A stretch of DNA of 64,000 nucleotides, taken from contig JAFSHW010000012.1 of NCBI GenBank assembly GCA_017440085.1, positions 16,931 to 80,930 of the forward strand. The letters run 5' to 3'. The notes beneath the pieces were generated by a model. It was not told the origin of the DNA. It searched no databases and was given only the letters and a program-made list of their open reading frames with translations. Source of the DNA: Clostridia bacterium. Its GTDB lineage: Bacteria; Bacillota; Clostridia; Oscillospirales; UBA644. How positions within the stretch are numbered: position 1 is the stretch's first letter; the number at the start of each line of letters is the position of its first letter. Of the stretch, positions 30,788-33,710 are shown in pieces. The position numbers were made by a program, and so were the translations under genes.

Positions 30788-31690
30788 TTAAGAAAGATAT
30801 GCCGCAAAGGGAACAGATTTCGAAGACACTATTCTTACACCTTCGTCGGTTTCGTGCATAGACGTTACACCGTTTATACGCAAGGTTAAAACAAGAGAGT
30901 ACGAAGCCCCTTCAGTATTTGCATATTCAACGCTTATAGAATCGTAGGCAACGTCGTTATCCAGCCAAATTTTAGCATTGTCTGAATATTTATAGGTTTC
31001 GTCTTCTTCATTTTTCACAAGAACACCTTTTTTACAAAGAGATTCGTAAATTCTAAGGCGTTTTTCTTGAGAAGAAAAACAGTTTGCGTCAAATTTTGAG
31101 CCTTGAACGAGGAATGCGAGAAATTTTTCATTATAAATATCGCTATCTGAAAGATACTCATTTTCCGAATCAAAATACGATTCACCTGAGGACTGCCTTC
31201 TCATATAATTCATCTGCGTAAGACCGAAAGTTATCCATTCCTCGTAGGTGAGAGATATATCCACGTTTTCCTCTTCATTAAACTCCGTTTTCAAAACGAA
31301 GACTTCCTTACGAAGGAAATTCACAACGGAATCCTTTGATATAAAAATCTTTAAAACGTTAACAGAAGGTTCTGAAGTTCTAATGCAAGCGCACCATACT
31401 TTAGGTTCCGCGTGGTTGTCTGCAAAAACAGTTACTTCCGCATTATCCGTCTTCTTTGAAAATTTTACGCAAATACCGGGTGCCGCAAGAAGCTCTGCTA
31501 TAATCCTGCCGTCTTCGCTAAGATAAAACTCATTGTGAGAATGCTCAACTAAACCTGTTTTTTCCAAGGAGGAAAGGGTTTTCAACTTTTTTGATTCACC
31601 GTCAATTACGTAAGGTGAAATACTTCCGGGAAAAATACCGTGAAAGCTTATAAGGGCAATTAGTTCTTCATCTGATAAAAGGTACGTCAT
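30788..31690 (-). CDS. Hypothetical cytoplasmic protein
   Basis: It is a 300-aa ORF with no TM helix and no motif I recognise. Its start overlaps the upstream stop (ATGA at 31687-31690) and its stop lies 15 nt before ruvA. Confidence 0.65.
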   Translation of the reverse strand: MTYLLSDEELIALISFHGIFPGSISPYVIDGESKKLKTLSSLEKTGLVEHSHNEFYLSEDGRIIAELLAAPGICVKFSKKTDNAEVTVFADNHAEPKVWCACIRTSEPSVNVLKIFISKDSVVNFLRKEVFVLKTEFNEEENVDISLTYEEWITFGLTQMNYMRRQSSGESYFDSENEYLSDSDIYNEKFLAFLVQGSKFDANCFSSQEKRLRIYESLCKKGVLVKNEEDETYKYSDNAKIWLDNDVAYDSISVEYANTEGASYSLVLTLRINGVTSMHETDEGVRIVSSKSVPFAAYLS

Positions 31691-32661
31691 TGCAATTCAC
31701 CCTCGCTTTCATTTATTTCTTCTTCAAATTCTCCGAAAAATTCAGGGAAACGAGCTTCTCTCTTTTCACAAGAACTTTCATCTGACATAAGCTTTTCGGA
31801 AATCTCGTTGACGGAAATTAAGTCTCCGCTAATAACCTCACTATCGTTAACTATAACTTTAGCGGCAGAAGCGTTAATAGTTATAATATTCCCTGAGGAA
31901 GCCATCCAATGAAGACTTATTTTATCATATACGGAAACACCCAATCCGTTTAAATCAACTTTTTCAACGAATTTTTCTTCGGGAGTTTCTTCATCTTCAA
32001 TTTCTTCCAAATCAGTATTTAAAGAAAGAACTTCCGTAATATCTATTTCCTCTTCAGAAACTTGATTTTTCTTTGCTAAGAAAGGTGCGTGAGGCAAAAA
32101 TACAGCCGCGCAAACGCAAATCAAAAGAATCAACAATGAAAAAAATAAGTTGAGTCCGTTTTCGGGTCGGGGCAGATTCAACGGCGAAACCTCTCCGCTG
32201 AGGCGAAGCTTTTCTGCCGCAAGAATTATTGCCTTATCGTCGCGGCAATCACATTCGGGGCAAGGCTTGTTGCAACCGGAGCAAAGTCTGGGCGAAACAC
32301 TTCCGTAATTACCGGTAGTATCAAGAACGGTGGTAGCGCCGCACCAACAATTGCAAGTGCAGGCGTACATATTCTTACCGCATTTTATGCAATCGTATTT
32401 CGAATGCTCCCCTACGTTTTCCGTATAGTATTCCCTACCGCAAAGGCAATCATTCCCAACAGGAGCCGCAGGAGCAGTAATAATAGGGGAAATATCTTCC
32501 GAGGGTTGTGCCTCAGGAGATTCTTCACCAACGTCTCCACCCACAGTCAAATCGTTATCTGCGAAGGAAGGCATTTCTTCCGTTGCAAAAATCGGAGTTG
32601 AAAAAGCGAACAGTACGCAAACAAGTATCAAAATTGCTTTTAATGATTTTTTAGCCATCAT
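31687..32661 (-). CDS. Hypothetical bitopic membrane protein with an exported Cys-rich domain
   Basis: It has a signal peptide (KAILILVCVLFAFSTPIFA), an acidic linker and 13 Cys in aa 72-139. These are followed by a TM helix (LFFSLLILLICVCAAVFL) and an acidic cytoplasmic tail. There are 4-nt overlaps with the genes on both sides. Confidence 0.65.
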   Translation of the reverse strand: MMAKKSLKAILILVCVLFAFSTPIFATEEMPSFADNDLTVGGDVGEESPEAQPSEDISPIITAPAAPVGNDCLCGREYYTENVGEHSKYDCIKCGKNMYACTCNCWCGATTVLDTTGNYGSVSPRLCSGCNKPCPECDCRDDKAIILAAEKLRLSGEVSPLNLPRPENGLNLFFSLLILLICVCAAVFLPHAPFLAKKNQVSEEEIDITEVLSLNTDLEEIEDEETPEEKFVEKVDLNGLGVSVYDKISLHWMASSGNIITINASAAKVIVNDSEVISGDLISVNEISEKLMSDESSCEKREARFPEFFGEFEEEINESEGELQ

Positions 32662-33104
32662 ACGGGTGCACCTCCCGCAAAAGAAAACGCTACGTAAAGA
32701 ATTATTGAACCGACACCTACGACTATAGGCTGATAAAGCATAATATCTTTAAAAGTATAGCCTTCGTTATTTATGCGGTGCAACGTTTCATTTAAAGTAG
32801 TGTAAAGCATTCCGATAAAATAGAACACTATATAAAAATCCCAACCTGCAACGACTTTTGCGATTATAAGAATAACTGCAAAAGGAGCAAGGTCACACCA
32901 AAAATATTTACCTTTGCGCTTTTCTTCGCCTCTGCCTTCTACGGTAAAGGTCATAAGAACAAAAGTTGTAGCAGCAAGACCAAGGTAAAGGAATCCGAAC
33001 AAAACGTATTTTAAAACGCCACCGTCTACGTTCATTATTCCAAAAACAAGAAAAATAATAAGTGAAGAGATTCCAACGACTGAATTTTTATCAATTTTAA
33101 CCAT
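32658..33104 (-). CDS. Hypothetical polytopic membrane protein
   Basis: It is 148 aa with about four hydrophobic helices and is translationally coupled to the downstream gene. Confidence 0.6.
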   Translation of the reverse strand: MVKIDKNSVVGISSLIIFLVFGIMNVDGGVLKYVLFGFLYLGLAATTFVLMTFTVEGRGEEKRKGKYFWCDLAPFAVILIIAKVVAGWDFYIVFYFIGMLYTTLNETLHRINNEGYTFKDIMLYQPIVVGVGSIILYVAFSFAGGAPV

Positions 33105-33116
33105 AGCCAGGCCTCC

Positions 33117-33710
33117 TCAGTTTACAGAAAACAAAATAATATTTACTGCAAATACTGTTAAAATCCCATTGGCTGCCACAGCAAAACAATACCAAAGAAT
33201 ATTATCTTTAAGCAAATGCTTTGCCAATCTGCCATAAGGAATAAGTGCAAACAGCAATGCGGAAATACCAAAAGTTATAGTTGTTGGTGCCGCAAATATA
33301 AGACGAACGAGAAGTCCGACAAACATCGCAAAAAACGGTATTATATACGAGAAATTGGAACATAATAAGACGCACTGAAAATCCGACTTGATAGCTTTGA
33401 GATTGAGAACCGCATAAAGAAGTCCCGCAGAAAGAAGGCTCATACCCACACCGACAATCAAAGAAATGAAAACCATAAGCAGTGCTTTTATTCCTGACAT
33501 AGTGGGAACGAATGAGAATCTGTCGAGAACCAACTGTATAGCAAAAAATACGTAAGTAACAGCAGGCAAAGCCAAGGAACCGAAGCTGAGTTCTGCATTC
33601 TGCTTGCCTATCGCCTTTGCAGGAGAAAGAGAAAAAGACGAAAATACCCGAACAATATCCGCTATTCCGAATATTGCCTTACCGGTGTTCTTTCCGTCTT
33701 TAGTGTTCAT
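33117..33710 (-). CDS. Hypothetical polytopic membrane protein (Yip1-like topology)
   Basis: It is 197 aa with about five TM helices after a short polar N-terminus. The RBS AAGGAAAGGA lies upstream. Confidence 0.6.
   Translation of the reverse strand: MNTKDGKNTGKAIFGIADIVRVFSSFSLSPAKAIGKQNAELSFGSLALPAVTYVFFAIQLVLDRFSFVPTMSGIKALLMVFISLIVGVGMSLLSAGLLYAVLNLKAIKSDFQCVLLCSNFSYIIPFFAMFVGLLVRLIFAAPTTITFGISALLFALIPYGRLAKHLLKDNILWYCFAVAANGILTVFAVNIILFSVN

Follow-up and report, generated by a model that had tools for sequence, protein, structure and literature searches.

In a stretch of 64,000 nucleotides (nt) from a Clostridia bacterium (assembly GCA_017440085.1, contig JAFSHW010000012.1, positions 16,931 to 80,930; this whole stretch is called the window below), four consecutive genes on the minus strand, designated A to D, lie directly upstream of ruvA and ruvB. 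On balance, the reading favoured here is that the four genes encode a new membrane complex that is autonomous, restricted to certain lineages and fast-evolving, in which a metal-cysteine domain outside the cell would be combined with a cytoplasmic adaptor of the EspG fold, and that the cassette is not an accessory of ruvAB. The genes are as follows.

33710..33117, minus strand: gene A, an open reading frame (ORF) of 197 amino acids (aa), a basic polytopic membrane protein with about five transmembrane (TM) helices, Yip1-like
33104..32658, minus strand: gene B, an ORF of 148 aa, a small polytopic membrane protein with four to five hydrophobic segments
32661..31687, minus strand: gene C, an ORF of 324 aa, a type-I bitopic protein
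31690..30788, minus strand: gene D, an ORF of 300 aa, an acidic soluble protein
30772..30179, minus strand: ruvA, context outside the cassette (Pfam RuvA_N, HHH_5, RuvA_C)
30115..29066, minus strand: ruvB, context outside the cassette (Pfam RuvB_N, AAA_lid_4, RuvB_C)

The four genes are tightly packed. A gap of 12 nt separates A from B, the B/C and C/D junctions each have an ATGA in common (32661-32658 and 31690-31687), and a purine-rich Shine-Dalgarno sequence precedes the start of each gene. The stop of D is followed after 15 nt by ruvA, and no terminator-like hairpin was found in the interval between them. This layout had been described in an earlier reading made from the letters alone (the sequence-only reading), and both the ORF coordinates and the hairpin scan bear it out. 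The B/C and C/D overlaps are present again, by their coordinates, in other lineages. Where the ratio of non-synonymous to synonymous substitution rates (dN/dS) could be computed against relatives, namely for A, B and C, it was 0.06-0.2, with dN of 0.13-0.35; dS was saturated, and the ratio was not computable for D. A to D are real genes under purifying selection.

The family is very small. Gene D found 14 matches among 5.8 billion clustered proteins and, when 1.84 billion representatives were searched exhaustively by profile, 22 clusters; a wide alignment search with D added at least one further distant member among the matches listed. Gene C gave 22 matches in the protein search, and its relatives were present in 10 of 185,579 species-level genomes and on seven metagenome contigs. 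The carriers are all uncultured gut or rumen Clostridia, represented by metagenome-assembled genomes (MAGs) labelled as Clostridia, Oscillospiraceae or Ruminococcaceae. Hidden Markov models made from the first lineages recovered all four proteins in the later ones (E 1e-14 to 1e-109), and homologues of all four stand in identical order in every related locus examined. The arrangements (loci are given by L numbers) are listed here.

Clade 1, to which the window belongs (L001-4, 6-8, 10-13, 20-21): asnS-aspAT-A-B-C-D-ruvA-ruvB-hydrolase
L028: divergent VanY, then A-B-C-D-ruvA-ruvB, then a convergent ABC transporter
Clade 2 (L005, L014-19, L022-25): divergent aminotransferase, then A-B-[C-D fused], then convergent GNAT and sortase-like genes
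Clade 3 (L009, L026): A-B-C-D-GH2-like
L029: divergent methyltransferase, then A-B-C-D, then a convergent leucine-rich repeat (LRR) protein
L031: A-B-C-D-MFS-GDPD (glycerophosphodiester phosphodiesterase)
L033: A-B-C-D-cotJABC

The order A-B-C-D is thus kept in about seven lineages with differing flanks, which argues that A to D are an autonomous cassette. The strongest evidence for a joint function comes from gene fusion. Clade 2 and three further representatives encode C and D as one fusion protein of 527-558 aa (P0035, P0053, P0055 and P0056), laid out as a signal peptide, the cysteine domain, a TM helix, a short linker and the D domain; the tail of C is shortened in these proteins and runs straight into the D domain. 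In P0035, the N-terminal part aligns to C at E 1e-44 and residues 250-527 align to D at E 3e-11. The fusion points to C and D as parts of one transmembrane unit, with D at work at the membrane. The sequence-only reading had proposed a stoichiometric membrane complex with one cytoplasmic partner: a membrane complex of this make-up gains strong, if indirect, support from the co-occurrence and the fusion. Its further suggestion of an undescribed multi-component system is also supported, as the four genes occur together in order across these lineages, no known system matches the set, and the literature searches turned up no account of the cassette. By sequence comparison, B, C and D are in no described family.

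Gene C encodes an exported, cysteine-rich protein that crosses the membrane once. It consists, in order, of a signal peptide, a variable acidic linker, a cysteine domain of about 70 residues, a TM helix and an acidic tail, as had been supposed when it was described as a bitopic protein with an exported cysteine-rich domain. Its parts are the following.

32584..32661, minus strand: residues 1-26, Sec-type signal peptide (MMAKKSLK, a hydrophobic core and IFA/TEE), from sequence and hydropathy
32236..32454, minus strand: residues 70-142, extracytoplasmic Cys-cluster domain, from alignments
32077..32154, minus strand: residues ~170-195, single TM helix followed by KK, from hydropathy and the AlphaFold2 (AF2) model
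31690..32076, minus strand: residues 196-324, acidic cytoplasmic tail, from charge and conservation

The export of the domain that follows the signal peptide is supported by the homologue P0055, since a lipoprotein-type lipobox (LLLTSC) sits at the equivalent place in that protein. The TM helix coincides with a hydropathy peak at residues 172-190 (score 2.88) and with an AF2 helix at residues 169-191. No part of the cassette is better conserved than the cysteine domain, which has 40-58% identity between lineages and whose pattern, CxCGRxY ... CxxCG ... CTCxCWCG ... (C)xxCxxxCxxCxC, is retained in the distant ones. Twelve cysteines are invariant (C72, C74, C91, C94, C101, C103, C105, C107, C130, C134, C137 and C139). 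The paired knuckles suggest about three Cys4 metal sites, probably for zinc. With its CxC/CxxC pairs at zinc-ribbon-typical spacing, the ectodomain resembles the zinc-ribbon and Cys4-knuckle domains; it differs from them in having 12-13 cysteines in about 70 residues, in lying outside the membrane of a Gram-positive anaerobe, and in having no family match and a low-confidence model. Its best match among PDB sequences, the zinc ribbon of ribosomal protein eL43, was non-significant (E 0.78). An exported domain with 12 invariant cysteines is unusual for the surface of a strictly anaerobic Gram-positive cell. The cytoplasmic tail has a net charge of -26 and carries two conserved motifs, G-I-S-V-Y-E-K-I-N-L-P-W and R-F-P-E-F-F-G; it may be the docking site for D. 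A fold search with the model of C returned no structural match, and C fitted no family in Pfam, NCBIfam, PADLOC, PHROGs or the PDB sequence profiles; its distant homologues gave nothing significant against the family libraries.

The C homologues of L009/L026, L029, L031 and L033 (for example L029 6958-8004) have a longer cytoplasmic tail of about 180 aa. These tails share H-x-K-I-L-x-K-I-E and Y-E-[ML]-T-N-A-[VL], and none matched Pfam. The C protein of the window is without both motifs, apart from a possible short counterpart, V-Y-E-K-I-N.

The soluble protein D, in which the sequence-only reading had found no functional clue, does offer one: an internal duplication and a predicted fold that resembles EspG. 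Residues 25-109 align to residues 201-284 when the two family halves are compared using hhalign (E 2.5e-5, probability 75%). The AF2 model, made from 13 homologues (predicted local distance difference test (pLDDT) 71, predicted TM-score (pTM) 0.52), has two similar halves, each a helical bundle with a helix/beta-hairpin/helix element and a four-stranded sheet. A Foldseek search of this model against the PDB returned EspG3, which serves ESX-3 type VII secretion as its PE-PPE chaperone, for all of the top 11 matches (E 1.7e-6 to 2e-3, probability 1.0), which span about 250-320 aligned columns with TM-scores of 0.32-0.51 (0.41-0.51 for the ten best); the first match to another protein had E 0.014 and probability 0.11. 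EspG is quasi-two-fold in structure and combines a central antiparallel sheet with two helical bundles; the halves are about 10% identical and the paralogues 13-23% identical (bioRxiv 10.1101/250803). As judged from the hhalign comparison of halves, D shares this quasi-two-fold architecture built from duplicated N- and C-terminal subdomains, and its predicted topology is like that of the EspG proteins of the mycobacterial ESX (type VIIa) systems (PDB 4w4i, 4l4w, 6uuj; PF14011). Both are acidic, cytoplasmic and non-enzymatic proteins of about 280-300 aa. The charge of D is pronounced, with an isoelectric point (pI) of 4.75 and a net charge of -18, the N-terminal module having a pI of 4.8 and the second module one of 5.2. 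Sequence searches of Pfam, NCBIfam, PADLOC and PHROGs with D gave nothing significant.

Genes A and B encode the polytopic components. Protein A has a pI of 9.6, a basic segment of 43 residues at its N-terminus and hydropathy segments at about 44-62, 76-94, 111-135, 141-158 and 171-189, which fits the Yip1 expectation of about five TM helices behind a cytoplasmic N-terminal segment. The A protein of the window did not itself match the Pfam Yip1 model PF04893 at E ≤ 1, and NCBIfam, PADLOC and PHROGs gave nothing significant for it. Three of its eight orthologues, all of clade 2, do match PF04893 (best E=5e-6, a match that one scan marks as 'weak'), and the clade-2 orthologues match the A protein of the window at phmmer E 1e-19 to 1e-24. 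A can be called Yip1-like by transitivity only, through these homologous orthologues, and on these terms the earlier label of a five-TM Yip1-like protein holds. A is present in all lineages; neither a search of the PDB sequence profiles with A nor one of the family libraries with its distant homologues gave a significant match. We know of no mechanism for a bacterial Yip1 protein, and Yip1-type proteins are, to our knowledge, functionally obscure in all prokaryotes. Protein B, with homologues in all lineages as well, is a membrane protein as had been proposed, and the number of helices given then, four, is uncertain: hydropathy indicates four or five segments, as residues 68-105 may be two helices. 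An alignment of three lineages shows G11, W69, P74, W88 and F94 to be invariant in B, which had no match in Pfam, NCBIfam, PADLOC, PHROGs or the PDB.

The surroundings of the cassette were also analysed in terms of transcription. Consensus scans of the window gave three signals.

37573..37601, minus strand: promoter-like site TTGCTA-17-TG-TATAAT with an extended -10 element, upstream of asnA
37714..37675, minus strand: terminator-like hairpin with an 18-bp stem, just before the asnA promoter-like site
28089..28123, minus strand: terminator-like hairpin with a 15-bp stem and a T-run, after the alpha/beta-hydrolase gene

The site upstream of asnA is the nearest good promoter-like site upstream of the cassette, and the hairpin at 28123..28089 is the first strong minus-strand terminator downstream of it. 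The cassette is probably contained in a predicted unit of about 9.5 kb and ten genes, asnA-asnS-aspAT-A-B-C-D-ruvA-ruvB-hydrolase. The claim that the four genes make up a self-contained operon was not upheld, nor was the weight that had been placed on co-transcription with ruvAB, since ruvAB follows the cassette in two related lineages only, clade 1 and L028, and not in clade 2, clade 3, L029, L031 or L033. These five have other genes downstream of the cassette: a convergent GNAT gene (clade 2), a GH2-like gene (clade 3), a convergent LRR gene (L029), MFS-GDPD (L031) and cotJABC (L033). Compared with the window, L028 has 85% identity in RuvB and 65% in RuvA, with 22-33% in the cassette proteins; L006, at a RuvB identity equal to that of L028, has 40-57% in the cassette proteins. 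The dN of the cassette is two to four times that of ruvAB. The discontinuity in L028 (6036-10545, compared with 29066-33710 of the window) points to a cassette that either evolves much faster than its flanks, perhaps in episodes, or was replaced by a divergent allele.

Several features of the flanks are worth recording. Directly upstream of the cassette, at 33772-37556 on the minus strand, lie asnA (aspartate-ammonia ligase), asnS (Asn-tRNA synthetase) and a PF12897 aspartate aminotransferase gene, with gaps of 24-61 nt; together they form a supply block from Asp to Asn to Asn-tRNA. The alpha/beta-hydrolase gene (Hydrolase_4, 28127-29062, minus strand) starts 3 nt past the ruvB stop. This junction is kept throughout clade 1 (L001, L002, L003, L006, L010-L013) and not in L028, and the hydrolase is an unusual passenger of a ruvAB unit. 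In L031 (2286-5539), the end of D and an MFS transporter gene share 4 nt, and a glycerophosphodiester phosphodiesterase gene and a 58-aa ORF come next, which indicates that the cassette is translationally coupled to different downstream genes according to lineage. In L005 (5519-8960; also L014, L016, L017 and L019), a convergent GNAT acetyltransferase and two proteins of about 500-560 aa follow the fused cassette in a lineage-wide arrangement; the two large proteins have weak sortase and Big_2 matches.

Under the favoured reading of an autonomous membrane complex, A and B would form a membrane-embedded core. C would cross the membrane once and display outside a metal-binding knob with, probably, three Cys4 zinc sites, and D would dock on the conserved acidic tail of C. 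Being EspG-like, D would be a protein-binding adaptor or chaperone and not an enzyme or a DNA binder. The complex could then couple a surface cue, such as a ligand, a metal or redox state or a partner protein, to a protein-protein interaction in the cytoplasm; alternatively, it could hold a client protein at the membrane. A bolder version of this proposal is a new Gram-positive transmembrane machine, in which an EspG-fold protein, fused or translationally coupled to a single-pass metal-cysteine protein and accompanied by Yip1-like and small polytopic subunits, recruits or releases a client on a surface cue or passes it to the membrane for export. We regard this version as tentative, and rather doubtful at present.

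A number of points weigh against the proposal. The EspG link comes from one AF2 model of moderate confidence, that of D (pLDDT 71). The root-mean-square deviation between D and EspG3 is about 10 Å, and only two normalised TM values reach 0.50. The comparison of the D-family profile with an EspG profile gave an hhalign probability of 0.3% and E 0.19, the EspG profile being thin (4 sequences, from two mycobacterial plasmid ESX loci and PDB alignments; effective number of sequences 2.1), and none of 20 D-family members matched Pfam EspG (PF14011) at E ≤ 1. These negative profile tests place the likeness of D to EspG at the level of the fold only. The interaction of C and D in their unfused form is extrapolated from the fusion. 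Since AF2 modelled C poorly (pLDDT 54), metal binding is read from the cysteine pattern; disulfides may be present in the ectodomain in place of metal sites. The transcription unit is a prediction from consensus scans, and the biochemical role of the cassette is itself a proposal.

The first alternative is that D is a true, diverged homologue of EspG. The cassette would then be a minimal or accessory module of type VII-like secretion, in which D chaperones helical-hairpin substrates to a channel of A, B and C. EspG3 structures alone match the model of D significantly, the quasi-two-fold internal duplication is common to both proteins, and D is membrane-tethered in the fusions. As paralogues of EspG are themselves so little alike in sequence (13-23% identity), the negative sequence test is a weak one. 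However, no type VII gene (EccB-E/MycP, EssC, WXG100, PE/PPE or LXG), and with these no FtsK/SpoIIIE ATPase (EccC/EssC), was found in the 64-kb window or in the approximately seven neighbourhoods, for which a genuine ESX locus was used as a contrast. The cassette encodes no energy source, and the hhalign comparison with EspG was not significant. The two proteins also differ in setting: EspG belongs to Actinobacteria and chaperones PE-PPE dimers as a free protein of the cytosol, whereas D is found in Clostridia, outside a type VII secretion system (T7SS) context and with no detectable sequence or profile similarity to EspG, and is coupled or fused to a type-I membrane protein. Homology in this full sense is considered unlikely.

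The second alternative assigns the cassette to surface conflict, immunity or bacteriocin-related functions, or to envelope or sporulation morphogenesis in these spore-forming Clostridia. Yip1-domain proteins recur in the clusters of leaderless and circular bacteriocins (PMC11580447), and a role in membrane remodelling or in secretion has been predicted for archaeal cassettes of Yip1 with small, fast-evolving membrane proteins (PMC5898192). The much faster evolution of the cassette relative to its flanks and the presence of cotJABC behind it in L033 would also fit. Against this stand the lack of a peptide precursor, an ABC exporter or a mobile-element context at the locus, and the housekeeping setting, in which asnS, the cassette and ruvAB probably share a transcript. 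Searches of PADLOC and PHROGs with A to D gave no match better than E 0.03, no fold match was found in BFVD, and the adjacency to cotJ is confined to a single lineage. A role of this kind seems improbable. The archaeal cassettes of three to four genes (Makarova et al. 2015, PMC5898192) are the closest parallel for A, as they too place a Yip1 protein (PF04893 / COG2881) beside small diverged membrane proteins. They differ in their partners, which include the SpoIIM-like arCOG01996 and arCOG09673 in archaea and B, C and D here, and the A protein of the window falls short of the Pfam model of the family.

It could also be argued that C and D are a membrane signalling pair, with the cysteine ectodomain as the sensor of metal or redox state and D as a winged-helix transcription regulator whose sequestration or release at the membrane would follow a ToxR-like or anti-sigma-like logic. 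The D-family profile has a marginal match to the winged-helix structure PDB 2x4h (E=0.0045), and D members have weak ones to HTH_45 (0.0012, 19 bits, cutoff 25.5) and WH_AprA (0.015), in agreement with the helix/beta-hairpin/helix elements that occur twice in the model of D. A sensor-like ectodomain is, moreover, fused to D in some lineages. All of these winged-helix matches are below the curated thresholds, though, and no nucleic-acid-binding domain reaches significance in the D-family scans. The match over the whole chain of D is to EspG and not to regulators, no proteolytic-release machinery or target operator was seen, and D is acidic in both of its modules. A role for D as a DNA-binding regulator was rejected because of this acidity, and the signalling pair as a whole is quite unlikely. 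C and D do resemble single-pass receptors and tethers, such as ToxR-type regulators, anti-sigma factors and EssB of T7SSb, in that one TM helix joins an extracytoplasmic domain to a cytoplasmic protein-binding domain and polytopic partners are encoded alongside. They differ in being of type I, with a cleaved signal peptide and the N-terminus outside, and in containing no helix-turn-helix, sigma-binding or pseudokinase module; no sequence relationship was found.

That the cassette is a partner of RuvAB, for instance a membrane tether or a regulator of Holliday-junction processing, is very improbable: D and ruvA are indeed 15 nt apart and no terminator intervenes, the order A-B-C-D-ruvA-ruvB occurs again in L028 despite a differing upstream flank (VanY), the L028 cassette has its own promoter-like site, so that ruvAB there is probably expressed from it, and RuvX and OGG genes lie within 8 kb, but five other lineages carry the cassette without adjoining ruvAB, the whole block from asnA to the hydrolase gene is syntenic in clade 1, and D and the tail of C are strongly acidic and have no significant nucleic-acid-binding domain. 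Because L028 is a close relative by RuvB, the simplest account of the adjacency in clade 1 and L028 is synteny inherited within one family-level group. A role in DNA repair is weakened further because an Rfam scan of 27000-41000 gave no regulatory RNA and no T-box, no LexA/Cheo box was found near the cassette, and the wider window is core chromosome, with SMC, FtsY, Der, YceD, galK, transketolase, RuvX and OGG. The reading of the cassette as a DNA-repair accessory was rejected on the neighbourhood comparison.

If the EspG-like fold of D is real, the scaffold of a T7SS chaperone or adaptor has relatives in Clostridia in a membrane-tethered setting, and D would be the first EspG-fold protein outside actinobacterial type VII secretion. 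This would matter for the question of how EspG arose and for the use that is made of Yip1-type membrane proteins. The practical importance is limited by the size of the family, which is confined to about 10 species-level genomes, all uncultured MAGs from gut or rumen.

Other loci of the window also deserve mention. An ECF-type sigma factor (43812..43249, minus strand; Sigma70_r2 and r4_2) is overlapped by about 40 nt by a 287-aa ORF (43289..42426, minus strand) that has no Pfam match; the layout is that of a sigma/anti-sigma pair with an orphan anti-sigma factor. Just upstream of the sigma factor lies a gene for a 981-aa protein with a pectate-lyase-like domain (46881..43936). Within 8 kb of ruvAB are a RuvX-type resolvase gene (26104-26526, plus strand) and an OGG/HhH-GPD glycosylase gene (23743..22889, minus strand), and an ATP-grasp_ST and DUF6062 pair is found between the two (23845-25555, plus strand). 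Relatives have a 75-aa PP-binding carrier protein alongside this pair (L001 13976-14203), and the set suggests a small, uncharacterised acyl- or aminoacyl-carrier pathway.

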